From assembly GCA_947458235.1 (NCBI GenBank), contig CANGYP010000001.1, positions 1,248 to 65,247 on the forward strand: DNA of 64,000 bases, in the 5' to 3' direction. How positions within the stretch are numbered: the first letter of the stretch is position 1; each line of letters opens with the position of its first letter. Shown in pieces: positions 17,517-57,716 of the stretch. A model generated the notes under the pieces. The model had not been told where the DNA came from. It saw only the letters and a program-made list of their open reading frames with translations, and searched no databases. The position numbers and the translations under genes were made by a program. Origin of the DNA: Alphaproteobacteria bacterium. GTDB lineage: Bacteria; Pseudomonadota; Alphaproteobacteria; JAJTHO01; CANGYM01.

Positions 17517-19160
17517 ATGGCCATTCATATGAGCATCCCCAAGGATGATTTTGATCTGAAGCCCAAAATTACCGTCATTGGTGTGGGCGGGGCTGGGGGT
17601 AATGCTGTTAATAATATGATTCGTGCCAACCTACAGGGCATAGAGTTTGTGGTGGCTAATGCGGATGCGCAGGCCTTGGCCCAGTCCGAATGTCCGAATC
17701 GTGTGCAGCTGGGCATGAACATCACCCGTGGTTTGGGGGCTGGATCCCGTCCAGAAATCGGAAAAGCTGCAGCGGAAGAGGCCCTTGATGAAATGATAGA
17801 ATACTTGCACGGCAGCAATATGGTCTTCATCACCGCAGGTATGGGCGGGGGAACAGGAACGGGGGCTGCCCCCGTTATCGCCCGCGTGGCCCGTGAAAAA
17901 GGTATCCTGACTGTAGGTGTTGTTACCAAGCCCTTTCATTTTGAAGGGGCCCATCGTATGCGCTTGGCCGAGGCTGGATTGGATGCCTTGCAACAAGTGG
18001 TGGACACCCTGATTGTGATTCCCAACCAGAATCTTTTTCGTTTGGCCAACGAAAAAACTACTTTTGCGGATGCCTTTAAAATGGCCGACGATGTTTTGCA
18101 TTCAGGGGTTCGGGGTATTACCGATTTAATGGTGATGCCAGGGTTGGTCAATCTGGACTTTGCTGACATTCGCACCGTGATGATGGAAATGGGCAAAGCC
18201 ATGATGGGCACAGGGGAAGCCGAGGGCGAGAATCGTGCCGTGGTTGCCGCTGAAGCCGCCATCTCTAATCCCTTGCTGGATGATGTGTCCATGAAGGGGG
18301 CCCGTGGTGTGTTGATTAACATTACGGGTTCTAAAGACATGACCCTCTTTGAAATTGACGAAGCCGCCAATCGCATCCGCGAAGAGGTAGATCCCGATGC
18401 CAACATCATTTTTGGATCTACCTTTGATGACAGTGTGCAGGGAAAAATCCGCATTTCCATTGTCGCCACAGGCATTGATGCCGCACCCCGTCCCACCACC
18501 AAGCCCATCGACCATGCTGGGCGTGCCCCCATTCCTGCTGCTGCCCCAGCCTCAACGCCCCATCCTTCTGCTGGCTATGCACATCCCCCAGCCTATTCCC
18601 CGCAACATACCCTTTCCCACAACCCGTCCGCAGGGGGATATGGCGTTGCCCCACAGGGTGTTGTCCCCCATCATCTTGCGGCGCATGCACCGATGCCGAG
18701 GGAATCTGGGGAGGATGTGTCTGGTGTGTTCATGACGCCCCCTCCTGTGCGGGCTGATGTGCGGGCTGAGGTTGTTCCTCCCCGTCTAGAAACCGTTTCC
18801 GCCCCAGAGCCTATTGCCGCAACCCCTGCTGTTGTGGTCAATTCCGCGCCGCGAGGGGATGCGGCTGTGGCCCTGTCCTCCTCATCTTCCCCCCGCCCCA
18901 CCTCGGGTGCCCGAGACTCTGCCCCTCCTTTGTCTCCATCTCTGGAGGCTGCTGATGCTGCTTCTGCTAAGCCGTCTCTTTTTGGCCGTTTGGCCCAAAC
19001 CGTTTCTGGGAAACCTGGGAAGGGGGACAGTGCTCTGCCACACCGTCCTCAATCTGCCGAAACCTCTGCTGAGTCGTCTAAGATGGAAGCCCCCAAATCT
19101 CCGACACCGCCCGCGCTAGACGAAGATTTAGAAATTCCTGCTTTTTTAAGACGTAAGTAA
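17517..19160 (+). CDS. ftsZ: Cell division protein FtsZ with long Pro/Ala-rich C-terminal linker
   Basis: Tubulin signature [13 protein letters not shown] with NADAQAL. A roughly 200-aa low-complexity linker precedes the conserved C-terminal peptide [11 protein letters not shown]. Confidence 0.9.
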
Positions 19161-19997: not shown

Positions 19998-20654
19998 TTG
20001 GTGCTCTTTCATCAAGTTCACGTTCCCCCTGTTTGCAGTCTTTGCTCACGTTTGTGCGCTTTTCGTGATCAGAATCGCGCTCAAAACCCTTTGTATCATA
20101 ATGCCCCTGTTCCCGCATTTGGGGATTTGTCAGCTCGTTTATTGATTGTGGGATTAGCCCCTGGTCTTTCGGGGGCCAATGCGACGGGGCGGCCCTTTAC
20201 GGGGGATGATGCGGGGCAAGTGCTTTATGCGGCCTTGTTGGCGCATGGGTTAGCTTTGGGTGATTATCGAGGTCATGCCCATGATGGGCTGCGCCTGATG
20301 GATACCCGTATCACCAACACCGTGCGTTGTGTACCCCCCAACAATCGCCCAACACCCTTGGAAATCCGCACATGCGGTTTCTTCTTGGATCAAGAAATTC
20401 ATGCTATGCCCCATCTGTCCGTGATTTTGACATTGGGTAAGGTCGCCTATGAGACAACCCTTAAGATTTTGGGCGGCAATCCCCGTCAAACCCCCTTTGT
20501 CCATGGCCGTGTGGTTCAACAAGGCCCCTATACCCTTATCGCCAGTTACCATACATCCCGTTATAATATCAACACAAAACGTCTAACCGTGGAGATGTTT
20601 GATGCCATCATGGGCACAGTGTCCACATCTCTGGCGGCGACACCACGCCCCTGA
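19998..20654 (+). CDS. Uracil-DNA glycosylase superfamily protein (family 4/5 type, Fe-S)
   Basis: N-terminal Cys cluster CSLCSRLC, motif LLIVGLAPGLSGANATGRPFTGDDAG and a C-terminal HTSRYN-like motif. Confidence 0.7.
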   Translation: MVLFHQVHVPPVCSLCSRLCAFRDQNRAQNPLYHNAPVPAFGDLSARLLIVGLAPGLSGANATGRPFTGDDAGQVLYAALLAHGLALGDYRGHAHDGLRLMDTRITNTVRCVPPNNRPTPLEIRTCGFFLDQEIHAMPHLSVILTLGKVAYETTLKILGGNPRQTPFVHGRVVQQGPYTLIASYHTSRYNINTKRLTVEMFDAIMGTVSTSLAATPRP

Positions 20655-20688
20655 ACATGCCATGGCATCGTGAATACCACCCCCCCCC

Positions 20689-22737
20689 CTACGCCACATC
20701 CCCCATAGTCCCATGAAATGCTTGTTCCTCGGCGCGGCGCATGTCCTCTTCGTATTCGGCTTTACGGGCCTCGATCATAAAGGGGGGCATGGACGGGGCA
20801 GGGGGGTAGTTTAGGCCCATACCATGATCTGGATTATGCACCAAGTGTTTCAATTCAGGATGTTTGAAATAGGCGGGGGTGCTTGCCATAATGGGCCGGT
20901 TCATATTGGCCTGCATCAGAACGATGTGTTGTTTCAGATTGGGTAGGGACATAAAATCCTCTGGCCGAATCAGGGGTTGGCCCTGCAAAGATTTCTGCAT
21001 GTTGCTGGCAAAGGGATTGGTTTGACGGGACAAACCCACGGTGCGGCTTTTGGATTTGGATTCCATGGTCCGCTGGCCCACCATTTCCGAAAACCGTTTG
21101 GCTGTGGTTTCGTTGTTCAGGGGCAAAATCACTTTAGCGGCAGTGGTGGAAATCACGGTTTCCATTTCGTTTTCCCCGTATTTGGCCTTGATCTGGCCCA
21201 AATCCTGACCGATCATCAGGAAACTGACCTTTTGTCCCCGACCCACGGCAGGACCATCAATCAGGGCCTGCAGCTTGGGCATTTGGGGGAACTCATCCAA
21301 AACAAACAACACAGGAAAGGGGCCCACATCCCTGCCATCACGGGTTTTCCCCTTGGGTTTATGGGCCACCAACCATGCGGACATGGCCTCAATCAGCAAT
21401 CCCGTAATCACCCCTAGGGCGCGGGCATCTTCTTGGTTCACACAAATATAAATGGTTACGGGTTTCATTTCCCCTGTTATGGGGTCACGCATACCGCGCA
21501 CATCCATAAAGGAAAAATCACTTTTGGATGTTCTGGCCCGCACGGCACTGTTTTTGAACACAATCAATCCTCCATCCATGGTGGACATGATGGACCCGCG
21601 CTCTTTATCGGGTGTGGCGGCTAAGCTGGTTAACTCCATAACCGCGCGAGGGGCAAACCCGCCAGCGTGGGCTTCGCTGGCGGCATCTTTTAAAAACTCT
21701 GTTACAGGATCATACTGCATGGCCTGCATGGGATTTTTTTTCATCAGCTCTTCTTTTTTCTTTTGCGCCCCCATGGTGGCTTCAGTCATCCAGTCAATAA
21801 TCATGGGGATGCATGCTTCTTGGCCTTGCCATTGCTTGGGGATGCCCTGATAATTGCCCGTTTCACATTTTTGAACGATATAATGGACAAATCCAGCCAA
21901 AGCGGCGCGGGCCTTGGTGGACCAGTGGGGCTCTTTTTCATTTTCCACAATCATAATATTAACAATACGATCCACATACAAATCGCGGTTGGGCCCGAAT
22001 TCGGGAATGCACATGGGGGATAAGGGATTCCAGCGGGGAAAGAAAATACCCTGCTCTGGCTTATCCTGCGCGGCCCATTCCAAACGAAAGCAAAGGCTGT
22101 GTTTGGAGCGATAACCAGATGTTAAATCAAACAATTCTGGCTTCACATCATTCACAATCATGGACACGTTGTCACAGGTCAGAATGGTGGGCACAACCAC
22201 ACTCACCGTTTTACCCGTCCCTGGGGGGGCCACACACAAAACGGAGAGGGTTTCTGGCAATTTCAACAAACGGCCTTTCCATTCCCCAATAACGATGATC
22301 CAGCCCTTATCCAGCAAGCCCATCTCTTTAATATCATCATCACGGGCATAACGGGATGATCCAAAGGTATCATCAATAAAGCTATAGGGGTTCCGCACCA
22401 ACATATAAAACAACAGCAAGCTGGCGGGCAGAAACGTGATGAACATTTCAACAGGCAGACCAAAAATACGCCAGTCGTTAGGAACACCCCCCACATTGCC
22501 AATCCAGTTTAAATGAAATTCATAAAACAGCATGGGGGATAGCATGGTTTCCCAATACGTTCCCAGCCCCATCAAGTTCGGCTTGCTGACCCCATTTTTC
22601 ATCAAATAAAAAAAACTGGCGGAAACGGCCGTTCCCACATACACAATAGAAACAAACCACACAAAGGACTTAAGGATCCACGCTCTGGCCTTTTGCGTTT
22701 CACCAGCATCTTTTTTACGTTGATAGGATAGGGACAT
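20689..22737 (-). CDS. virD4: Type IV secretion / conjugation coupling protein, VirD4/TraG family
   Basis: N-terminal TM helices, Walker A CVAPPGTGKTVSVVVPTIL and Walker B-like VLFVLDEF. 682 aa. Confidence 0.8.
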   Translation of the reverse strand: MSLSYQRKKDAGETQKARAWILKSFVWFVSIVYVGTAVSASFFYLMKNGVSKPNLMGLGTYWETMLSPMLFYEFHLNWIGNVGGVPNDWRIFGLPVEMFITFLPASLLLFYMLVRNPYSFIDDTFGSSRYARDDDIKEMGLLDKGWIIVIGEWKGRLLKLPETLSVLCVAPPGTGKTVSVVVPTILTCDNVSMIVNDVKPELFDLTSGYRSKHSLCFRLEWAAQDKPEQGIFFPRWNPLSPMCIPEFGPNRDLYVDRIVNIMIVENEKEPHWSTKARAALAGFVHYIVQKCETGNYQGIPKQWQGQEACIPMIIDWMTEATMGAQKKKEELMKKNPMQAMQYDPVTEFLKDAASEAHAGGFAPRAVMELTSLAATPDKERGSIMSTMDGGLIVFKNSAVRARTSKSDFSFMDVRGMRDPITGEMKPVTIYICVNQEDARALGVITGLLIEAMSAWLVAHKPKGKTRDGRDVGPFPVLFVLDEFPQMPKLQALIDGPAVGRGQKVSFLMIGQDLGQIKAKYGENEMETVISTTAAKVILPLNNETTAKRFSEMVGQRTMESKSKSRTVGLSRQTNPFASNMQKSLQGQPLIRPEDFMSLPNLKQHIVLMQANMNRPIMASTPAYFKHPELKHLVHNPDHGMGLNYPPAPSMPPFMIEARKAEYEEDMRRAEEQAFHGTMGDVA

Positions 22738-23506
22738 GGCGGGACACTCTCACAGCAACCTAAAAACCATATCGAATTGTATGGAAAATGTCAAGGAAAA
22801 TCAGGAAACCATCATCGCCTCCGGATATGGCTTTTCGCCTGTATTTGATGATGTTTATTTCCAGCCCTGTGATCCAGTGGCGGAATCCCGCTATGTGTTT
22901 ATGAATCATAACTTTCTGCCCCAGCGGTTGAGGGTTACCCCCACCTTCACCATCGGGGAATTGGGATTTGGCAGTGGCCTGAATGCCATAATCACTCTTG
23001 ATTTATGGCTGCGTGTGGCACCAGCGGGCAGCACACTGAGATACTGCGCGGTTGAACAATACCCCCTCAGCCTTGCCCAACTCAGGGTGATAGGAGAGCC
23101 TTGGCAGGCCCTGTTTCCCATGGCCCATAGCCTGCTTCTGTCCCATCATTATCAGGATGCCTGTTCTCAGGCCATCACCATCCCCTTGCAAGACAACAAA
23201 ACTTTTATATTACAGATATTTGTTCAAGATGCGGCCCAAGCCCTGACCCATTGGCCCGCCACAGTGGATGCGTGGTTTTTGGATGGTTTTGCCCCCGCCA
23301 AAAATCCAACAATGTGGCATCCTTCGGTTTTATCAGGGGTGGGGCAGAACACCTTTTGGGGGGGAACCTTTGCGACTTTTACAGCAGCATCCGATGTGCG
23401 GCGGGGCTTACAGGCCGCAGGGTTTCACGTGTTCCGCACCAAAGGCTATGGCCAAAAACGGCACCTATGCTGGGGCTATCGTTTTTCAAATCCTGGGAAA
23501 TTTTGA
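22736..23506 (+). CDS. MnmC-type tRNA mnm5U methyltransferase domain protein (standalone MnmC2/DUF752-like)
   Basis: ELGFGSGLN SAM-binding motif and WFLDGFAPAKNPTMW match the MnmC methyltransferase half. No FAD oxidoreductase half is present. Confidence 0.55.
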   Translation: MAGHSHSNLKTISNCMENVKENQETIIASGYGFSPVFDDVYFQPCDPVAESRYVFMNHNFLPQRLRVTPTFTIGELGFGSGLNAIITLDLWLRVAPAGSTLRYCAVEQYPLSLAQLRVIGEPWQALFPMAHSLLLSHHYQDACSQAITIPLQDNKTFILQIFVQDAAQALTHWPATVDAWFLDGFAPAKNPTMWHPSVLSGVGQNTFWGGTFATFTAASDVRRGLQAAGFHVFRTKGYGQKRHLCWGYRFSNPGKF

Positions 23507-24126
23507 CGCAATTTAAACAAATCAGGATTCAAGGATTCGGGCTGCTGCAAAGACGTCAAGTGGGTGCGAATCGGACTGCCCACAGGATCCACATAGGCCC
23601 ACCCCATCAGTTTAAGTGTTTTTTTATCAAACAAAAAATACAGGGGCGGCTGGTCGGGGGATTGGGGCAACACCCGCAAAAACGTCCGCGTTTCATCATG
23701 GGCGACTTGAAATGTATAGTCCGTGCGGTTGCGCAGCACTACGGGGTCCTGCAACAAAAACGACAACGGCAGATCATCAATGGAAATATAGGTCCGCTGG
23801 CCCAAATTCAAATCATAAAAAACCGCTGTCCCTGATTTCACAATCAGATATTGTCGCGTTGACATTTTCAGGTGCATTTGGTTGGGACGCTTCCAGTAAA
23901 GCGTGCCGGTTTGATCGGGTTTGCCTTCTTCCAGCTGGATATAGGTGGCCTGAACTTGTTTCAGGGCATTGAGGTTGTGTTCAATGCGCGAGAGGATCTC
24001 TGAATCCTGCGTCCAAGCCAACACTGGATTGTCAATAGCATCCCCCGCATCGGCGGCAAAGGCCGCGTGAAACCTTTGGGAAAGGGTCAAAAGCATAAAA
24101 CAAACAACAACCAGTCTCATGGCCAT
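23476..24126 (-). CDS. lolA: Periplasmic lipoprotein carrier LolA-like protein
   Basis: Signal peptide, then QVQATYIQ...GTLYWKRPNQMHLK, as in LolA LWVKRPN. About 216 aa. Confidence 0.65.
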   Translation of the reverse strand: MAMRLVVVCFMLLTLSQRFHAAFAADAGDAIDNPVLAWTQDSEILSRIEHNLNALKQVQATYIQLEEGKPDQTGTLYWKRPNQMHLKMSTRQYLIVKSGTAVFYDLNLGQRTYISIDDLPLSFLLQDPVVLRNRTDYTFQVAHDETRTFLRVLPQSPDQPPLYFLFDKKTLKLMGWAYVDPVGSPIRTHLTSLQQPESLNPDLFKLRQNFPGFEKR

Positions 24127-24243
24127 CCTAAATGTGTCGTGACACTTTACGTTAAAGCATACTCCCCACTATAATGCGATGGTTTTCATAAGGGAGGAAG
24201 AAACACTAGGTAGGGCTCTCCTTTCATGCTAAATCCTTGATTC

Positions 24244-26556
24244 ATGATGACGCATCGATGGATTTTAGGGTTTGTTGTGTTGCTTTTCTCTGCCTTCTCA
24301 GCCGCGGAGGCCAAGACGTGCTTGGTGCTTTCTGGCGGAGGCGCCTTGGGGATTGCCCATGTGGGTGTTTTGAAAGTTTTAGAGGAACAGCGCGTTCCCA
24401 TCGATTGCATCGCTGGCACCAGCATGGGTGCCATTGTGGGGGGGTTGTATGCCTCGGGTTACTCCGCGCAGGAACTGGAAACCCTAGTAGAAACCTCTCA
24501 ATGGGCTACATTATTCAGCGAGCCTAGTGAGCGGCGTGATTTAACCTTTCAGCGCAAGCGGGATGATCTAAACTTTTTAATGGATTTTAAAATCGGCATC
24601 AACGACGAAGGCAAGGTTGCCCTGCCCAAAGGGGCCATTTTGGGCAATCAGATTGATCTGGCGTTTTTGGAATTCACCCTGCGCAGTCATGGGATTACTG
24701 ATTTTGATCGGTTGCCCATTCCCTTTCGCGCTGTGGCCTCGGATGTGGAAACGGGAAATCCTGTGATTTTGGGGCATGGGTCCTTGGTTCGGGCCATGCG
24801 GGCCAGCATGTCTGTGCCTGGGGTTTTTGCCCCTGTAGAGATTGATGGAAAATTTTTGGTGGATGGGGGCGCATCCAACAACCTGCCCATGGATGTAGCC
24901 AGAGCCATGGGGGCCAACCACCTGATTGTGGTTCATATTCCCACGCTTCTTAAGGAGTATTCCGAACTAACCTCTGCCCTAGACGTGGCTGGACAGATGA
25001 TTTCCATTTTGATCAAGCAAAACGAGGATCGGCAACTCACCACCCTGACCGTTCAGGATGTTTACATTCGTCCTGATATTGACGGGTTTAGCTCCAGCGA
25101 TTTTGCACAGGCTAAAGCGATCATCAAGCCCGGCATCAAGGCTGCGCAGGACCAACACAAGGCTTTGGCGCCTTTGTCAGTGTCCCCTGCAGACTACGCC
25201 GCCCTTCGCGCCCGTCAATACCGCCCCGTACCCCCAAACCCCCTTATTGAGTTTGTGGAACTAAAGAATGATTCAAAACTCAGTGATGAAATCCTGTGGC
25301 AAAACATGTCCATAAAATCTGGCGAACCCCTATCCATGCAAGTTTTGCAGCAGGATTTATCCCGTCTTTATGGGACAGGACATTTTGAAAGCGTCACTTT
25401 TGATATTGTGGATCGCTCTGGGCAAAAAGCGGGCGTTATTGTATCCGCCACAGACAAAGCCCAAAAAGACCATGGAAACGTTGGGGTAACGCCCAAGGCT
25501 CCATCTCCTACCACCGTATCCGAGGCGATACCCTTCTCTGAAAAAGGCCTTTCCATCGCCGCACAGCCCAAAGCATGGTCAATGGATAACCTGCGGTTTG
25601 GCCTGAATTTAGAGGATAATTTTGAAGGCAACACATCCTATAATCTCTCCACTCGTTATTCGCAAACCCTGTTGAATAATTTAGGCGGCGAGCTAAATCT
25701 AGACGGCCAAGTGGGGGAAAACAACAAAGCCAAAGCCGAATGGTACCAACCCTTAAGTGCTGAAAAAGGCCCCTTCGTGGCCGCCAGTGGGGGGTACGAG
25801 GGGCAAAATATCCCCATTTTGCAAAACAAACAGGAGATTGCCAAATACCGCCTAACCCGCTACACCGCCCAAGCGGCTGTGGGCACAACGCTGCTGGATA
25901 ACGACGGCGAGGCCCGTGTAGGCCTTGAGCGGGGCTATGGGTACGCGGACCTGAAAACAGGCGATCGCCCCTCGGGCATCGACAATGACTTTGATATTGG
26001 AGATGCCTTTGTGTCCATTGATTATGACACCTTAGATCAAATCAATTTTCCCAAAAAAGGGAAATTTGGCAACATAACCTTTCGCAAAGCCACGGAAACC
26101 CTAGGCTCCACAAGCCGTTATGAGCAGGGGCAAGGGCGCATGACATGGGTAGAAAGTTTAGATGACAAAAACACCTTTATTTTCACCAGCAGCTTGGATC
26201 TCTCGCTGGAAGATGACGCCCCCATCAATGGCCAATTTTTGGGGGGTGGATTCCTGAATTTTTCGGGTTACCAAAAAGACCAAATCCTAAGCCCTAACAT
26301 CAGCAGCAATCGCCTTCTGTACATCCACCAGCTGTATGGCAACAGCGAAGACCTCTTTCATCTGCCTGTTTATGTGGGGGGATCGTTTGAGGTCGGGGAT
26401 TATCAGGAACAGCACCAAGATTTGATGAGCGATCCCATCGCCTCTGGATCGGGATTTTTTGGCACGGACACTATCTTTGGCCCCGTATACTTGGGCTACG
26501 GCCAGTCCGAAGGGGGAATGCGGTCCGTCTATCTATTCTTGGGACGCTCTTTTTAA
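24244..26556 (+). CDS. Patatin-like phospholipase fused to a C-terminal Omp85/surface-antigen beta-barrel (PlpD-like type Vd autotransporter)
   Basis: Signal peptide, oxyanion CLVLSGGGALG, GTSMGA nucleophile and DGGASNN catalytic Asp. A long Gly/Tyr/Asn-rich beta-strand region ends in the C-terminal FLGRSF, typical of OM beta-barrels. Confidence 0.75.
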   Translation: MMTHRWILGFVVLLFSAFSAAEAKTCLVLSGGGALGIAHVGVLKVLEEQRVPIDCIAGTSMGAIVGGLYASGYSAQELETLVETSQWATLFSEPSERRDLTFQRKRDDLNFLMDFKIGINDEGKVALPKGAILGNQIDLAFLEFTLRSHGITDFDRLPIPFRAVASDVETGNPVILGHGSLVRAMRASMSVPGVFAPVEIDGKFLVDGGASNNLPMDVARAMGANHLIVVHIPTLLKEYSELTSALDVAGQMISILIKQNEDRQLTTLTVQDVYIRPDIDGFSSSDFAQAKAIIKPGIKAAQDQHKALAPLSVSPADYAALRARQYRPVPPNPLIEFVELKNDSKLSDEILWQNMSIKSGEPLSMQVLQQDLSRLYGTGHFESVTFDIVDRSGQKAGVIVSATDKAQKDHGNVGVTPKAPSPTTVSEAIPFSEKGLSIAAQPKAWSMDNLRFGLNLEDNFEGNTSYNLSTRYSQTLLNNLGGELNLDGQVGENNKAKAEWYQPLSAEKGPFVAASGGYEGQNIPILQNKQEIAKYRLTRYTAQAAVGTTLLDNDGEARVGLERGYGYADLKTGDRPSGIDNDFDIGDAFVSIDYDTLDQINFPKKGKFGNITFRKATETLGSTSRYEQGQGRMTWVESLDDKNTFIFTSSLDLSLEDDAPINGQFLGGGFLNFSGYQKDQILSPNISSNRLLYIHQLYGNSEDLFHLPVYVGGSFEVGDYQEQHQDLMSDPIASGSGFFGTDTIFGPVYLGYGQSEGGMRSVYLFLGRSF

Positions 26557-50878: not shown

Positions 50879-52849
50879 TTATCCCCTGCGCCATCCCCAC
50901 AGCAACAAAGCCCCCATCAGGGCAGCGAGGACGGGGGGCGTCCATGGCCATACTTCGCCTTGGCCCATGGTGATGGCCGAGGGACGATCAAAGATCAAGG
51001 TTTGGGATGATAAACGCTCTGACAATCCCTGATCAAAGGTGATGTTGAGGGGGGCGCTGGGATCATCACGATATCGACCGCTGTTGTGTTTGGCCAACAG
51101 GGCGCCCGAGGGGGGAACGGGGGTCCACTCCGCCGGCGGTCCCATGTCAAAGGGGATAGGAATCAACGTTTGTTGAACCCGAACGGCCCACAGACCCGCA
51201 CGGTTTAGGGGGGTGCGATACACCCCATCCCCCTCTGGGGTCCAAGGTTGCCATAATCCCTCTGGACGATAAAGGGATACGGTACCCTTCAGCGTTCCTC
51301 TGGGGGTGCAGGTCAATGTGGCCTTATCTTGTTGGCAGGTCATGGGGGGGGCCTCTAAATCGGGCTCCCGCAATAACCAGTGCATCAAACGGCGCATCAT
51401 GGGGTTAAAGGGGGGTGGTTCTTCCCCTTGAGGGCGGCGCCATGTCCATACATCATCCGTGGCCACCCATGCCATGCGTCCATGTTGCGGGGTGTCGGGC
51501 CAGATACTCAACACAGGGATTTTTTCGGGGGTTTCCAGCAGGGCCTCTGCCTCTGCTGGTAATATCGCTGGCAGGTATCCGCGCAGTTGTGGAAAGGTCT
51601 TGCCCAAAAACGGCTGGGTGATGGGGTGATCCTGCCCCAAACGGGGGGTGATGGGGGCATCCTGATAGCCTTGGGGGGATAGGGTTAAACGTAACATATC
51701 CTGCAAAGCTACCAGCAAACTGTCGTTTTTTGCGCCTTCGGGCCCCGTCATGATCAGAAACGCGCCGCCTTTTTGAATAAAAGCCCGCAGCCCCTGCAGG
51801 TGAATGGGCTGTAACAATCCCAAATTGGCGTAACGATCCATGACAATGACATCAAAATCATGGATGCGGTTTAAAAACAGCTCATCCACAGGAAAGGGTA
51901 TCAGGGCCATTTCATCTGGCGGCGTGAAATCCACGCTGTCCATGCGGCGCAAAATAGAAAAATGGACCAGATCCATGTTGGGGTCTTGTTTAAACAAACT
52001 CCGAAAGGCCCGTGTGGAGGGATGCGAGGATCCCGAAACCATCATCACCCGCCACCGATCCCGAAACACCGTCAGGGTGAAAATGGCGGCATTGTTTTGC
52101 AGTGTCGCTTCCTTATCCAGCGGCGGCGTAGCCAAAAGATAGGGGGTGCGCCCAGGGCGATCGGTATTGAGGGGGATTTGGGTTTTTTCCCCATTGCGTA
52201 CCCGATACGTAACCTGCTGATCACCGTGGTACAGATTCAGGGGAATCTCGGACCCCTCGGGCTGTGTGGTGTCCCGCACCGTAACGGACAGGGCAAAGGG
52301 CTTGCCCACCAATTGATAGGATGAGGATTTCTCCAAAACCACCGAACGATCTGGCGCATTGCGAAAGGCGCTGAGGACGTGGATGGGTACCGTTGCCCGA
52401 AAGGTCGATAAATCCGCTTTGGCATCATGCCACAGGGTGTCACTGATAATCACCACACCGGCCAAACGATCTTGCGGCACGCTTTGCAGGGCGGCTTTTA
52501 GGGGGGGCAGGACCCTCGTGCCTTGATCCGTCTGGCTCAAGGGAAAGGATTGCAACGTGGCTTTCTCCCCCACGGCATTTTTCAGGGTTTTCAGCCACAG
52601 GGCTTGGGCCTGTGTATCCGCGCTGGCCGTTTGATCCTGCAACACCACAATGGTTTTGGGGGACGCTTTGGGGGCAGGTTTTAACAGGGTCACCTGAGAA
52701 AGCATGGCCACCAACACAGCCACCGCCCCCAAGCGGGCCCAGCTTTTTCGGCCCCACAGCACCACCAGTGCGCTGAGCATCACCACCACCACACTCAGGG
52801 CCACCGAGCCCTCCTCCCATGACAGGGTATATCCCCCCAGATCAAGCAT
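50879..52849 (-). CDS. Large membrane-anchored protein with N-terminal double-TM domain and C-terminal TM (TIGR02226/DUF4159-like), function unknown
   Basis: Two hydrophobic helices at the N-terminus (VALSVVVVMLSALVVLW and LGAVAVLVAMLSQVTLL), a roughly 550-aa soluble region and a C-terminal helix ALMGALLLWGW. Overlaps the response-regulator gene stop by a few nt. Confidence 0.55.
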   Translation of the reverse strand: MLDLGGYTLSWEEGSVALSVVVVMLSALVVLWGRKSWARLGAVAVLVAMLSQVTLLKPAPKASPKTIVVLQDQTASADTQAQALWLKTLKNAVGEKATLQSFPLSQTDQGTRVLPPLKAALQSVPQDRLAGVVIISDTLWHDAKADLSTFRATVPIHVLSAFRNAPDRSVVLEKSSSYQLVGKPFALSVTVRDTTQPEGSEIPLNLYHGDQQVTYRVRNGEKTQIPLNTDRPGRTPYLLATPPLDKEATLQNNAAIFTLTVFRDRWRVMMVSGSSHPSTRAFRSLFKQDPNMDLVHFSILRRMDSVDFTPPDEMALIPFPVDELFLNRIHDFDVIVMDRYANLGLLQPIHLQGLRAFIQKGGAFLIMTGPEGAKNDSLLVALQDMLRLTLSPQGYQDAPITPRLGQDHPITQPFLGKTFPQLRGYLPAILPAEAEALLETPEKIPVLSIWPDTPQHGRMAWVATDDVWTWRRPQGEEPPPFNPMMRRLMHWLLREPDLEAPPMTCQQDKATLTCTPRGTLKGTVSLYRPEGLWQPWTPEGDGVYRTPLNRAGLWAVRVQQTLIPIPFDMGPPAEWTPVPPSGALLAKHNSGRYRDDPSAPLNITFDQGLSERLSSQTLIFDRPSAITMGQGEVWPWTPPVLAALMGALLLWGWRRG

Positions 52850-53549
52850 GATCGGCCACCAGACGATATCCCTGATGACGCACAGTTTGCAGGTATTGTG
52901 GCGTTTTGGGATGAGGTTCAATTTTTTGGCGCAAACGATTCAGATGAACATCTATGGTACGGGATAGGCTGGTTTCCTCTAACCCCAAGGCCGTTTGCAG
53001 GGCCAGACGGGACACGGGTTGCCCGCCCGCCCGCACCAAAACATCCATCAAGGTTTTTTCTGCGGGCGTTAAGGCAATGGGCCCCCCATCCATCCCCAGC
53101 AGGGTTTGCATGGTGCTTTGATAGGTTAACCGTCCCAAACGCAGAGCAGGGGAGGGGGCTTCCTCCAGACTATTGCCCGCCCGCTTTAAAATATTTTGAA
53201 TGCGCAACAACAGCTCCTCAGGCACAAAGGGCTTGGTCAAATAATCATCGGCCCCCAACGACAATCCCGCAATGCGATCGGCAGATTCCCCCTTGGCCGT
53301 TAACATCAACACTGGCAGCATATTGTCTTGTCCCCGAAGCTGCGCCAGAAAATCCCGCCCCGTTTGATAGGGCATCATGTCATCCAAAATGATCAAGTGA
53401 CAACGATATTCAGGGGCCTTCAGGATCGCATCGGCCTCCGTCGGGTGGGCGGCGGTGCTGACGGTATAGCCATGCTGGCGCAAAAACCGCTGCAACAACA
53501 GGCGGATGCGCTGATCATCATCCACAATCAACAGGTGAAAAGACGACAT
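52842..53549 (-). CDS. OmpR-family two-component response regulator (REC plus winged helix)
   Basis: HLLIVDDDQRIRLLLQRFL...LIILDDMMP...LMLTAKGE...DDYLTKPF, then a C-terminal wHTH YLQTVRHQGYRL. Confidence 0.85.
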   Translation of the reverse strand: MSSFHLLIVDDDQRIRLLLQRFLRQHGYTVSTAAHPTEADAILKAPEYRCHLIILDDMMPYQTGRDFLAQLRGQDNMLPVLMLTAKGESADRIAGLSLGADDYLTKPFVPEELLLRIQNILKRAGNSLEEAPSPALRLGRLTYQSTMQTLLGMDGGPIALTPAEKTLMDVLVRAGGQPVSRLALQTALGLEETSLSRTIDVHLNRLRQKIEPHPKTPQYLQTVRHQGYRLVADHA

Positions 53550-54704: not shown

Positions 54705-55910
54705 CTAAGTGGCCAAGGCCATGGTATAGGATCCTATGGTCTTACAATTGACGCAAACGGGTTGCCACGTGGGGCTTTGATCCTGACAGTGGTCACATGT
54801 CCAAGCATGGCGCAGGGTCTCCCCCTCGGGGGGCTGCAAACGCATAACCTCCGCTTCATGATAAGCCAGTTTTTCCACAAACCCCAAACTCTCAAAAACA
54901 GAGGCCATCAGGCGATGATAGAGGGGTGAATTCTCCTTGATCTCCATGGATTTAATGGTTTTTGTACGCTCTTTTTCGGGCAGGGATCGGATGATTTGCA
55001 TCAGCAGAGTTTGCACAAACAAAAATCCCGCCCCTTGGGGCAGGATTTTTTTCATCAAAGACAAAGCCTCCCGCCCATCGGTGTCGCACAAAGATCCTGC
55101 GTACAGGGCCCGCATGGCCGCATCATTGCGGTCGCGTTGATAGGCTTTTTTGAAGGCCTCTTGGGCCTGTTGCAGAGCCTCTTGATCCTGTTTTTGACTA
55201 TCATTATAGACCTGCCAAGCCCGTTTACCCTCTGCTGCGGCGATGGCTTTTTCCATGCGCAGGGTTTCCTTGGCATCAAAAATCCGGCGATGGGTGCATA
55301 GCAACTGATTAGCCCCCTCTATATCCCCCATCACCAAAGCCCGCGCCATCAGGGCCCGCACAGCCCATGGTTCCTGACGCTGCTCAACACTCAGGGTGCT
55401 TAGCCACTGAAAGGGATCCTTCACCTGATTGTCGGGCAAGTGCGTTAACTCCCGAATCCCCAAAGCACTCAGCTTCGGATCAAACATCAAAGCTTGATAG
55501 GCTTGACGTGCCCCTTCCATATCGCCCTTCATTTCACATACGCGCCCCTGCAAATAGGGGAAGAGGGGATTGTCCCGCAAAGATTTTTTCAAAACGGCCA
55601 AATGCCGGTCTGCGCCCTTTTTGTCCTGCAATACCACCGCCTGCCAACACAAACCCAAGGTATCGAGAGATTCCTGAGAACGCTGCAATTGTCGTCGCAA
55701 ACTGCGATGTTGGGACCACGCCATCAAAGACGCAATGCTGCTGAGTAAGCCATGGGCTAAAAAAAATACAACCAACACAAACGTCAACGCCACAGACAGG
55801 GACATACTGATTTCGTATCCAGCAATCAGGATCGTCACCGTATCAGCAGAAAGAAACTGAATGCCCGCCACCAAAACAACCAACAAAACAAGGGTCATGG
55901 CCGTTTTCAT
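54705..55910 (-). CDS. HemY_N-domain TPR protein (heme-biosynthesis-associated, hemY-like)
   Basis: N-terminal TM pair, an LLSSIASLMAWSQHR-type HemY_N region and TPR-like repeats. A C-terminal CDHC...CVNC Cys motif is present. Confidence 0.65.
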   Translation of the reverse strand: MKTAMTLVLLVVLVAGIQFLSADTVTILIAGYEISMSLSVALTFVLVVFFLAHGLLSSIASLMAWSQHRSLRRQLQRSQESLDTLGLCWQAVVLQDKKGADRHLAVLKKSLRDNPLFPYLQGRVCEMKGDMEGARQAYQALMFDPKLSALGIRELTHLPDNQVKDPFQWLSTLSVEQRQEPWAVRALMARALVMGDIEGANQLLCTHRRIFDAKETLRMEKAIAAAEGKRAWQVYNDSQKQDQEALQQAQEAFKKAYQRDRNDAAMRALYAGSLCDTDGREALSLMKKILPQGAGFLFVQTLLMQIIRSLPEKERTKTIKSMEIKENSPLYHRLMASVFESLGFVEKLAYHEAEVMRLQPPEGETLRHAWTCDHCQDQSPTWQPVCVNCKTIGSYTMALAT

Positions 55911-56917
55911 GGGGCGATCCCCTCCGAGTTTTTAACAGGATTTTCGGGGGATAGGGGCGCCATGGGCGATGCTCCTGCCTGCGTCATGTCCTGAATCATT
56001 TGACGTGTCATATCCATACGGGCGGAACGCAGCCACACATAACACCTCAGCCATGTTTCAAAATCTTGTTTCCACGTTTTCCAGCGGGCCTCCTCTGCAA
56101 ACAATAAGCGGGCATCCAAGGTTGCCACAAACCCCGCCGCTTCATCCAAACGTCCCTTGCGTACGGCGGGCAAAATGGCATTTTGCCACGTGTCATAGGC
56201 GTCATTATAAAGACCCACCACCTCAGGACCACCCCCAGCATCCTCGGGACTCAATGAGCCAGGGGCCCGAACCGTCACAAAATGACCGAGCACGGATGAC
56301 CAAAACGACGACGGGGCAGGGGCAGGGGACTCCGCCGCCCCCACAATGGGCTCGGGCAAAACCACCAATGCCTCGGCCTGCTGCACAAAATGGGCAAAGG
56401 AGGATCGCAAAATCAGAAGATCGTCTGTCTTTTTTTCAGGAAACAGATTGTGCATCAATACCAATAACGCATCCACATCCCGCGAGGTCAAGGGTTGAGA
56501 TGCGAAAAACAACAGCAAATCATCCACCAAATCTTTGGCCAACATCAAATCGGCCCCCGATGATGACTTGGGGAATGACTGATCCTGAAGCGATGGCGTC
56601 TTTTGAGAAAAATCCAAAGCTCCCAACAAAGATAAAGGGACAGGGGAGGCGGGCTCCAACCCTTGGGGCACACGATGGGAAAGCTCGGTGAGCAAACCTT
56701 CGATGCGGTCCAATTGCATCTGAACAGGGGCGAAATTCACAGACGGCGCAGAAGCAGGGGGCAAAGGCTCCTTCACAAGAAAAAGATCCCCATAATGTCC
56801 CGCCGCCAACCCCGCCGCAAAAATCAACAGCCCCCCCATCATCAGTACCAAAAACCGTCCCCAAAAGGGATATTTAGATTGTTTTTGGGACATTCTAACG
56901 GCATCAGGAAGGGTCAT
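55907..56917 (-). CDS. Membrane-anchored protein in the hemD-hemY neighbourhood; candidate alphaproteobacterial Mic60/mitofilin homolog (COG4223-like)
   Basis: Single N-terminal TM FWGRFLVLMMGGLLIFAAGLAAG, a low-complexity middle and a conserved-looking C-terminal domain. It lies in the characteristic hemD-X-hemY position. The ORF could start at 56995. Confidence 0.5.
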   Translation of the reverse strand: MTLPDAVRMSQKQSKYPFWGRFLVLMMGGLLIFAAGLAAGHYGDLFLVKEPLPPASAPSVNFAPVQMQLDRIEGLLTELSHRVPQGLEPASPVPLSLLGALDFSQKTPSLQDQSFPKSSSGADLMLAKDLVDDLLLFFASQPLTSRDVDALLVLMHNLFPEKKTDDLLILRSSFAHFVQQAEALVVLPEPIVGAAESPAPAPSSFWSSVLGHFVTVRAPGSLSPEDAGGGPEVVGLYNDAYDTWQNAILPAVRKGRLDEAAGFVATLDARLLFAEEARWKTWKQDFETWLRCYVWLRSARMDMTRQMIQDMTQAGASPMAPLSPENPVKNSEGIAP

Positions 56918-56948
56918 AGCGTGGGCACCAAATTCAGGAATTCCTTCA

Positions 56949-57716
56949 CTAACTCCCAGATGGAGAGCGTTTGTAATAAGATTCAATGCACGCAATCAGA
57001 GACGTGGTTGTAGGCTCTGACGGCATAGTGATAGAGGATTGTGGCATAATTTTGGACCCCTGCGCAATATCCTTGCTCAGGCAAAACAAATGCCCCTTAC
57101 GATACAGAGGGGCCAACCCGTGATAAAAAATCAAATCATCCCAATGCCCCATGCCCCGTGATGAAAGAGCAACATAACCCATTAAAGACTTAGAGGAATA
57201 AGACAATTCCTGCATCACGGCCCGAATGGACGAAGGAATTTCTGGGATCAACGATGTTTTATAAACGATTTGTTCGCTATACGCCAACCCTAACTGAGCG
57301 ATATCCCTCCCTAAGTTTGGGTTTTTAACCACATCCCCCCTGTAATAATGGATGGCCTTGATGTCTTTTCGATTGTTGTCTGCCAGATGATGCAAAAAAG
57401 CCTCAATGGTCAAAAAACGCTCCATAGCTCCCTGAAAGCCTGCCGCACAAAGCGCGTTTTGGGTTTCCTCGCCGATGACAAAACAATGGGCCTTTTCTAT
57501 AAAACGCACCAGAGACGACACAGCACGAACCCCCGCACGGCTGGAAAACAACAAAGCACTGTAGGGAGAGGGAGGATTCGCGGGAAAAAGCAGTTGATAC
57601 TGAACTACAGGAACGTAATAGGGACGAAACCATTTTTTTTCCAAAAGACGATCCAGTGTTCCGTAATCACGGTGCTCCCTGAGAATAATAAGCTTTTGAT
57701 AGTCTTCCGTCACCAT
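56949..57716 (-). CDS. hemD: Uroporphyrinogen-III synthase
   Basis: HemD-like two-lobe pattern (ALLFSSRAGVRAV) and position upstream of the hemY-like cluster. 255 aa. Confidence 0.55.
   Translation of the reverse strand: MVTEDYQKLIILREHRDYGTLDRLLEKKWFRPYYVPVVQYQLLFPANPPSPYSALLFSSRAGVRAVSSLVRFIEKAHCFVIGEETQNALCAAGFQGAMERFLTIEAFLHHLADNNRKDIKAIHYYRGDVVKNPNLGRDIAQLGLAYSEQIVYKTSLIPEIPSSIRAVMQELSYSSKSLMGYVALSSRGMGHWDDLIFYHGLAPLYRKGHLFCLSKDIAQGSKIMPQSSITMPSEPTTTSLIACIESYYKRSPSGS

Follow-up and report, generated by a model that had tools for sequence, protein, structure and literature searches.

Why does a complete gene for a type IV coupling protein (T4CP) stand alone among housekeeping genes, and does it still serve a type IV secretion system (T4SS)? 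The question is raised by virD4, a gene at 20689..22737 on the minus strand of a 64,000-nucleotide stretch of contig CANGYP010000001.1 from an alphaproteobacterium (GenBank assembly GCA_947458235.1); this whole stretch is referred to as the window. A preliminary description had presented the gene as a full-length coupling protein of 682 amino acids (aa) with a transmembrane anchor and Walker A and B motifs, lacking VirB or relaxase genes within 20 kb. It had taken the gene for part of a scattered, rvh-type T4SS such as those of obligate intracellular alphaproteobacteria or, alternatively, for the remnant of an integrated conjugative element (ICE). We analyzed virD4 and its relatives by using Pfam, NCBIfam, tblastn, AlphaFold2 (AF2), Foldseek, and the ratio of nonsynonymous to synonymous substitution rates (dN/dS); loci of relatives are labeled L001 and so on. 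We conclude, with a probability of about 80%, that virD4 encodes the functional T4CP of a chromosomal, vertically inherited VirB/D4-type T4SS, the genes of which are split over about three loci, and that it has its own promoter.

Integrity, fold, and selection of virD4

The open reading frame (ORF) of virD4 begins with ATG, is uninterrupted over 682 codons, and contains no ambiguous bases. Its product matched the Pfam families PF02534 (T4SS-DNA_transf; 218.7 bits, E value of 1.8e-64, cutoff of 20.1), PF12696 (TraG-D_C; 93.2 bits, cutoff of 22), and PF10412 (TrwB_AAD_bind; 74.3 bits, cutoff of 20.5, residues 417-609). Two TM (transmembrane) helices are predicted near the N terminus, with all coordinates within the gene being on the minus strand. 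The first spans codons ~20-45 (22603..22680), where 19-residue Kyte-Doolittle windows reach at least 1.6 from residue 20 and the AF2 model has a helix at residues 12-48. The second spans codons ~92-114 (22396..22464), with a hydropathy peak around residue 90 and an AF2 helix at 96-114. The Walker A motif APPGTGKT (codons 170-177, 22207..22230) and the Walker B motif VLFVLDEF (codons 476-483, 21289..21312) were read directly in the sequence. In an alignment with 35 homologues, every Walker A residue (A170, P171, P172, G173, T174, G175, K176, and T177) is invariant, as are F478, L480, D481, E482, and F483 in the Walker B motif and the residues P484, Q485, M486, and P487 that follow it.

The AF2 model built on the same alignment had a mean predicted local distance difference test (pLDDT) score of 86.3 and a predicted template modeling score (pTM) of 0.80, and in addition to the membrane helices, it has a RecA-like core with an all-alpha insertion and a C-terminal helix. 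The all-alpha domain, inserted in the nucleotide-binding domain (codons ~249-402, 21532..21993), consists of helices only, with pLDDT of ~81 to 94, and the C-terminal helix leads into a net-acidic tail (codons ~638-682, 20692..20826). The last 42 residues hold 8 D/E versus 4 K/R, and the extreme C terminus differs among species (..HGTMGDVA, ..LNASGDED, ..HQDLGDVA). By analogy with other T4CPs, this acidic tail may have a role in substrate or adaptor binding. A phmmer search of the Protein Data Bank (PDB) returned no chain at an E value of ≤1e-3. When the model was compared to the PDB with Foldseek, the top matches were all type IV coupling proteins, namely, Cag-beta (8dol; E value of 6.6e-23), TrwB (1e9r, 1e9s, and 1gki), and DotL (6sz9); the fold aligned with those of TrwB and Cag-beta over 500 to 590 columns, with target-normalized TM scores of 0.73 to 0.79 for the TrwB structures. 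Together, the Pfam matches, the membrane anchor, the Walker motifs, and the TrwB fold establish that the protein belongs to the VirD4/TraG-type coupling proteins. The outline given in the preliminary description was thus accurate. The all-alpha and C-terminal domains, about which it had asked, are both present, and the catalytic core bears neither a frameshift nor a truncation.

In comparison with its L001 orthologue, virD4 had a dN/dS of 0.059 at a dS of 0.50 and 95% protein identity. The same comparison gave dN/dS values of 0.21, 0.11, and 0.12 for the neighboring mnmC2, lolA-like, and patatin-Omp85 genes, respectively, with protein identities of 74 to 86%, so virD4 is the best-conserved gene of its neighborhood. 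A dN/dS this low is incompatible with a pseudogene or with an ICE remnant in decay; the pseudogene is ruled out by the intact frame and motifs as well. The GC content of virD4 (0.497) and its GC content at third codon positions (GC3; 0.574) match those of the adjacent genes (0.49 to 0.52 and 0.54 to 0.56, respectively), so the "mild GC drop" that had been remarked upon does not mark an island.

The absence of partner genes that had been described for the 20 kb on either side extends to all 64 kb. Pfam scans covered ∼58 of the 77 window ORFs of at least 150 aa, the others overlapping scanned genes on other strands or in other frames, and the families found were solely housekeeping: ftsZ, mnmA, purL, lpxC, aroK, pheA, uvrD, leuA, fabF, and ackA, together with a block of ribosomal proteins, EF-Tu, and EF-G, and two-component systems. 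Searches of the window by tblastn with the VirB7, VirB8, VirB9, VirB10, and VirB11 proteins of relatives, and with VirB2, VirB3, VirB4, and the MobA/MobL relaxases of the nearest plasmid systems, hit nothing beyond virD4. Neither the Pfam scans nor tblastn found an integrase, a transposase, or a relaxase in the 64 kb, no tRNA gene was found across the window, and no repeats flank virD4 beyond chance-level 14- to 30-mers, which bears out the earlier remark that no integrase or att repeat is visible. A horizontally acquired island is ruled out by the native GC3 and the lack of mobility genes.

Gene order of virD4 and virB genes in relatives and sister genomes

Full-length chromosomal relatives of VirD4 form a large set with 41 to 95% identity, all from alphaproteobacterial metagenome-assembled genomes (MAGs) except one. 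These MAGs are named Holosporales, Holosporaceae, Rhodospirillaceae, or Dongiaceae, and Rhodospirillales and Telmatospirillum also occur among the labels. The sole record in the VirD4 subfamily without a MAG label is that of Telmatospirillum siberiense strain 26-4b1, which we take to be a free-living isolate. The lineage of the window is one of uncultured freshwater alphaproteobacteria, and its nearest labeled relatives are Holosporales or Rhodospirillales. Among 72,556 plasmids, the best plasmid-borne homologue of VirD4 was 38% identical.

The position of virD4 changes in steps across these relatives. In nearly all relatives with 51 to 63% identity (Holosporales MAGs and Telmatospirillum siberiense), virD4 directly follows virB11, and the clusters are all flanked by housekeeping genes. 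Five loci (L009, L045, L046, L049, and L051) contain a full island with the order VirB7-like lipoprotein-virB8-virB9-X-virB10-virB11-virD4; others contain virB10-virB11-virD4 alone (L003/L059 of Telmatospirillum and L004/L050), and ∼2.5 kb is inserted between virB11 and virD4 in L052, L055, and L078. The nearest outgroup, L047 (79% identity), has virD4 directly upstream of the island in the order virD4-virB7-8-9-X-10-11 (L047 3025-12025), a possible intermediate arrangement. In the clade of the window (at least 86% identity), virD4 is alone in each of >25 loci, and separate islands end at virB11, beyond which lie trpB/trpA or other housekeeping genes (L013-L019, L034, L035, L040, L043, and L111). 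The relatives thus trace the break-up of a T4SS operon from a full island, through virD4 at the island front, to a detached virD4 with its own promoter. Judged from this gene order, virD4 is ancestrally the last gene of a putative virB7-virB8-virB9-X-virB10-virB11-virD4 operon.

The gene designated X encodes a lipoprotein of 373 to 461 aa and lies between virB9 and virB10 in every island (for example, L016 6907-8028, L017 7101-8255, and L009 5799-7184). X evolves fast, with 39% identity between subclades versus 81 to 88% for VirB8, VirB9, and VirB11; the corresponding values are 71% for VirB10 and 87% for VirD4. In islands of the high-GC subclade, X is followed by an 80-aa ORF. Pfam returned no match for X, this 80-aa ORF, the VirB7-like lipoprotein, or the proteins downstream of virB4 (see below). 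VirB10 (L016 8257-9969; also L003, L004, and L017) has an extra N-terminal Ig-like domain ahead of its TrbI domain, with weak Pfam matches to HYDIN/VesB-like Ig, ASH, and Cep192_D4.

Many gut and rumen MAGs labeled "Alphaproteobacteria bacterium" also carry a related VirD4 of ∼773 aa. In these loci (L066-L112, e.g., L089 and L090 "Acetobacter sp. CAG:977"), VirD4 (42 to 46% identity) is solitary within 10 kb on either side, except that L089 has virB8/virB9 on the opposite strand at a distance of 7 kb and L100 has a virB11 homologue ∼1.2 kb upstream. Within the VirD4 family as a whole, virD4 was probably detached more than once.

Species-representative genomes were scanned once with a 660-aa concatenated query in which three segments of the window VirD4 were joined to segments from L016, one of VirB11 and two of VirB9; each sixth of the query contributed one 8-mer of low degeneracy as a seed. 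In six MAG assemblies, virD4 and the virB island were each present, on different contigs: JBILMD01 (VirD4 at L037, island at L034), CANGYM01 (L036 and L035), JBJTVN01 (L038 and L044), JBIIHL01 (L039 and L043), JBILTX01 (L042 and L040), and JBILRW01 (L041 and L111). In JBILMD01, the nearest contig end is 14.5 kb from virD4 and 11.3 kb from the island, so the two are at least ∼25 kb apart. The window-type virD4 loci have a GC content of 0.51 to 0.53, and the paired island loci have one of 0.54 to 0.55. In a second type, a sublineage at 87% identity, the virD4 contigs (L007 and L008) and the island contigs (L018 and L019) share the samples ERZ19569183 and ERR11472538 and have a matching, unusual GC content of 0.40 to 0.42. 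Between the two types, VirB11 is 88% identical and VirD4 87% identical, a congruence that is as vertical co-inheritance would predict. By extension from the sister genomes, the genome of the window is expected to carry the virB island as well. A scan of Joint Genome Institute (JGI) metagenomes with VirD4 gave four loci that shared no sample with the virD4-less islands, and the members of cluster P0241 gave ten more virD4 contexts that shared no sample identifier with L013-L016; both covered longest-contig blocks only and are therefore uninformative on co-occurrence.

The C-terminal part of virB4 lies ∼3 kb upstream of the island in L046. A search with this VirB4 fragment led to cluster P0429 (75% identity, 32 members), of which the member P0500 is located at the start of the 17-kb contig L117 (GC content of 0.523) from JGI sample 3300045551; the contig begins inside virB4. 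The same sample yielded L026, a contig with a window-type virD4, and the GC content of L117 matches, which suggests a separate virB4 locus in the clade of the window. On L117, the genes after virB4 encode three signal-peptide proteins; lptD, lptFG, ndk, and thrC come next. Two or three Cys-rich, signal-peptide proteins without a Pfam match follow virB4 in both L117 (952-5360) and L046 (1218-3875), where canonical and rvh systems carry VirB6/TrbL genes; they may represent effectors or new components of the channel or the cell surface. Two other candidates for the VirB4 of the clade, the full-length P0501 and P0502, were rejected, as they belong to a different element (virB2-3-4...virB8-9-TcpQ-secretin-PilO-T2SSE; GC content of 0.58 to 0.61). 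In loci L115 and L116, a helix-turn-helix regulator precedes virB2-virB3-virB4...virB8-virB9 combined with a type IVb-pilus-like module of TcpQ, a secretin, PilO, and a T2SSE ATPase; the C terminus of their VirB4 is 56 to 58% identical to that of L046, and their GC content is 0.58 to 0.61.

A sigma-70-like promoter, TTGACA-17 nt-TATGGT, was identified by a consensus scan (10 of 12 matches) at 22766..22794 on the minus strand, 28 nt upstream of the virD4 ATG, and it overlaps the start codon of the divergent mnmC2 gene. It is kept as TTGACT-17-TATGGT in L001 and L039, and L006, in which the upstream neighbor is a flagellin gene, has TTGACA-17-TAATAT upstream of virD4. Since a promoter-like motif is kept in two upstream contexts, the detached virD4 appears, by consensus match and conservation, to be transcribed from its own predicted promoter.

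The genes adjacent to virD4 are those named in the preliminary description. On the 3' side lies a family-4 uracil-DNA glycosylase (UDG) gene (19998-20654, plus strand), and the divergent neighbor on the 5' side is mnmC2 (22781-23506, plus strand; longest ORF from 22736), which encodes a stand-alone MnmC2 tRNA methyltransferase (NCBIfam NF033855; 204.5 bits versus a cutoff of 136) and is not a T4SS gene. The block patatin-POTRA-Omp85, lolA-like, mnmC2, virD4 is constant on the 5' side in the high-GC subclade. The mnmC2-virD4 linkage was found in L001, L012, L020, L022, L024, L036, L037, L039, L041, and L042 and has persisted in at least seven species-level lineages. On the 3' side, virD4 is followed by UDG-NYN-ftsZ in the window and L012, by IMPDH-S21-UvrD in L001, L020, L024, L036, and L037, and by other genes in L039, L041, and L042, and the last few virD4 codons vary along with the 3' neighbor. 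Rearrangements have thus recurred at the 3' end of virD4, and the 34 bp that separate the convergent UDG and virD4 genes (20655..20688) are the exact point at which synteny breaks between species. This gap holds a perfect 12-bp palindrome, ATGCCATGGCAT, at 20658-20669 and most of a C10 run at 20680-20689, the final base of which occupies the third position of the virD4 stop codon. A terminator scan found no convincing intrinsic terminator in the 34 bp after virD4.

These arrangements are consistent with a model in which the ancestral virB7-virB8-virB9-X-virB10-virB11-virD4 operon would have encoded a P-type system, from which genome rearrangements would have separated virD4 in the clade of the window, leaving it beside mnmC2. 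By analogy with TrwB, Cag-beta, and RvhD4, VirD4 would be anchored in the inner membrane by its two N-terminal helices and would act as an ATP-driven hexamer. It would recruit substrates through the all-alpha domain and the acidic C-terminal tail and would hand them to a VirB channel encoded elsewhere. None of the >100 chromosomal loci examined has a linked relaxase, so the substrates are more likely to be protein effectors than conjugative DNA. Such effectors could target eukaryotic hosts or neighboring bacteria.

Known systems and competing explanations

VirD4 scored below every curated NCBIfam T4CP cutoff, and by a wide margin. The two VirD4 equivalogs, NF010472 and NF010424, gave 143.8 bits versus a cutoff of 728 and 133.6 versus 681, respectively; the IncP TraG model NF010450 gave 132.8 versus 674, and CD1115 gave 152 versus 250. 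Among the conjugative models (NF010450, the Ti TraG model TIGR02767, NF010453, F-type TraD, and others), the best scores were 132.8/674, 124.8/586, and 51.5/686 bits. None of ten representative VirD4 homologues exceeded any equivalog cutoff either.

The best structural match, Cag-beta (Cag5) of Helicobacter pylori, aligned over ∼585 columns with a target-normalized TM score of 0.69, but its sequence is just 16 to 17% identical to that of the window VirD4. Cag-beta is the VirD4-like T4CP of the effector-translocating Cag T4SS; its gene lies in the cag island, and CagZ regulates the protein. TrwB of R388, the archetypal conjugative T4CP, is plasmid borne and works with the relaxase TrwC. VirD4 shares with TrwB the RecA-like nucleotide-binding and all-alpha domains, the N-terminal membrane anchor, and the Walker A and B motifs, but the two are 14 to 16% identical, and a relaxase is absent from every locus of the chromosomal family of VirD4. 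The closest annotated homologues are those of Microvirga sp. VF16 (pMVF16-3), Sphingosinicella sp. BN140058 (p1), and Erythrobacter aureus, with 36 to 38% identity over 84 to 92% of the length. The megaplasmid modules of pMVF16-3 and p1 contain, contiguously, MobA/MobL, virB2, virB3, virB4, and then the genes from virB7-like to virD4. The order virB7-like, virB8, virB9, virB10, virB11, virD4 and the homologous VirB7-like lipoprotein are shared with the islands described here, which are in contrast chromosomal and fragmented, lack a linked relaxase, and, in the clade of the window, have lost virD4 from their end.

The system resembles the rvh-type archipelago, and we do not assign it to rvh. 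The rvh genes form scattered islets, virB3-B4-B6 and virB8-9-10-11-D4, with virB4, virB6, virB8, and virB9 duplicated and no virB5 (PMC2653234). Like rvh, the present genes make up a chromosomal, vertically inherited, alphaproteobacterial system of the VirB/D4 type that is dispersed as islets among housekeeping genes, with a virB(7)-8-9-10-11 islet apart from a virB4 islet, no linked relaxase, and a highly conserved T4CP. Some of the relatives are, moreover, labeled Holosporales or Holosporaceae. Membership in the Rickettsiales rvh system of an obligate intracellular bacterium is nevertheless very unlikely. In rvh, virD4 is the last gene of the virB8-11 islet and stays with it (PMC2653234), whereas here it has left. 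The islands have single virB8 and virB9 genes and the extra lipoprotein gene X, secreted Cys-rich proteins without a Pfam match follow virB4 in place of a tandem virB6/TrbL, and VirD4 reaches 134 to 144 bits against the equivalog cutoffs of 681 and 728. Furthermore, rvh is considered a hallmark of Rickettsiales (PMC11077975), yet the labeled relatives fall outside Rickettsiales, and the VirD4 subfamily includes Telmatospirillum siberiense 26-4b1. An obligate intracellular life also fits poorly with the many biosynthetic and two-component signaling genes in the window and with the flagellin gene in relatives. From the preliminary description, then, the scattered T4SS stands, borne out by sister genomes with a separate virB7-8-9-X-10-11 island, by a probable virB4 locus, and by purifying selection on virD4; its rvh membership and its obligate intracellular host are not supported.

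The other origin proposed in the preliminary description was a remnant of an ICE, or of a plasmid, from which the partner tra/virB genes were deleted and in which virD4 is decaying or neutral. We consider this scarcely credible. It would account for the solitary position of virD4 in 64 kb, its GC content slightly below the window mean, and the occurrence of its nearest plasmid-borne homologues in MobA/MobL conjugation modules. A neutral remnant is at odds with an intact frame, intact catalytic motifs, and a dN/dS below those of the flanking housekeeping genes, and an integration is at odds with the GC3 of the neighbors, the lack of an integrase, transposase, tRNA, or att-like repeat in the window, and an mnmC2-virD4 linkage that is the same across at least seven species-level lineages. 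In addition, the divergence of virD4 tracks that of the chromosomal virB island, and no plasmid-borne homologue exceeds 38% identity. An orphan or repurposed VirD4, acting as a lone membrane translocase of DNA or protein or serving visiting mobile T4SSs like the L115/L116 elements, is in our opinion unlikely. The gene is physically and, with its own predicted promoter, transcriptionally uncoupled from the virB genes; VirD4 is more conserved between subclades (87%) than VirB10 (71%) or X (39%); other T4SS-like elements exist in similar metagenomes; and solitary virD4 genes recur in gut alphaproteobacterial MAGs. The virD4-less islands, though, keep intact virB8, virB9, virB10, and virB11 genes, which would be hard to explain without a coupling protein, and the divergences of VirD4 and VirB11 are congruent. 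The L115/L116 elements differ in GC content (0.58 to 0.61) and have no link to the clade. To our knowledge, no T4CP works without a T4SS channel.

Several points weigh against a dispersed VirB/D4 system with VirD4 as its T4CP. The island and virB4 in the exact genome of the window are extrapolated from six sister species and from co-occurrence in samples, and the best VirD4 matches among the species-representative genomes are 91 to 95% identical, the species of the window not being among them; the exact contig was matched only in the ENA metagenome ERZ27263785. MAG bins can be chimeric, yet the six bins are in agreement, and they belong to several MAG series that were named separately. For the clade, homologues of VirB6/TrbL, VirB2, VirB3, and VirB5 were looked for and not found, so the machine may be incomplete. 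The promoter was recognized by its fit to the consensus, and fits of this kind are no more frequent in the region than in shuffled sequences. Finally, the nearest plasmid-borne relatives, at 36 to 38% identity, sit in MobA/MobL conjugation modules, so a role in DNA transfer is possible.

The gene is an ordinary, intact T4CP gene in an uncommon genomic arrangement, which makes it mildly unusual; the protein family, the fold, and scattered T4SS genes are all already known, and the finding is incremental. Since virD4 works within a dispersed secretion system and is not mobile-element junk, its annotation should name it as the T4CP of this system. In MAGs, T4SS detectors that rely on operons will overlook scattered systems of this kind or score them wrongly. 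The loci also provide comparative material for the debate on the origin of the rvh archipelago and on the role of such systems outside obligate intracellular bacteria. We tentatively raise the possibility that they represent an uncharacterized chromosomal VirB/D4 lineage in non-Rickettsiales alphaproteobacteria, the archipelago of which either evolved independently or is shared with Rickettsiales; its hosts would be freshwater Holosporales-like plankton, Telmatospirillum, and the alphaproteobacteria of gut and rumen MAGs. If so, flagellated, biosynthetically rich bacteria would use the system for delivering effectors into protists or for killing neighboring bacteria, and an independently transcribed virD4 could let substrate recruitment be regulated apart from channel assembly. 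If the lineage were sister to rvh, the origin of the rickettsial secretion archipelago would be pushed outside Rickettsiales.

Other genes of the window

Beyond mnmC2, a divergent gene for a LolA-like protein (23476-24126) belongs to the mnmC2 block, which in the high-GC subclade invariably accompanies virD4. It is followed by a gene for a 770-aa fusion of a patatin-like phospholipase with POTRA and Omp85 domains (24244-26556); the block with the LolA-like protein and mnmC2 spans 23476-26556. Two long ORFs on the minus strand had no Pfam match. One, of 680 aa (50879-52921), adjoins a gene for an OmpR-type response regulator and had no match at an E value of ≤0.01; the other, of 362 aa (55907-56995), is in the hemD/hemY region and had none at ≤1e-4. 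FtsZ (17517-19160) carries a proline/alanine/serine-rich linker of ∼220 aa ahead of its conserved C-terminal peptide.

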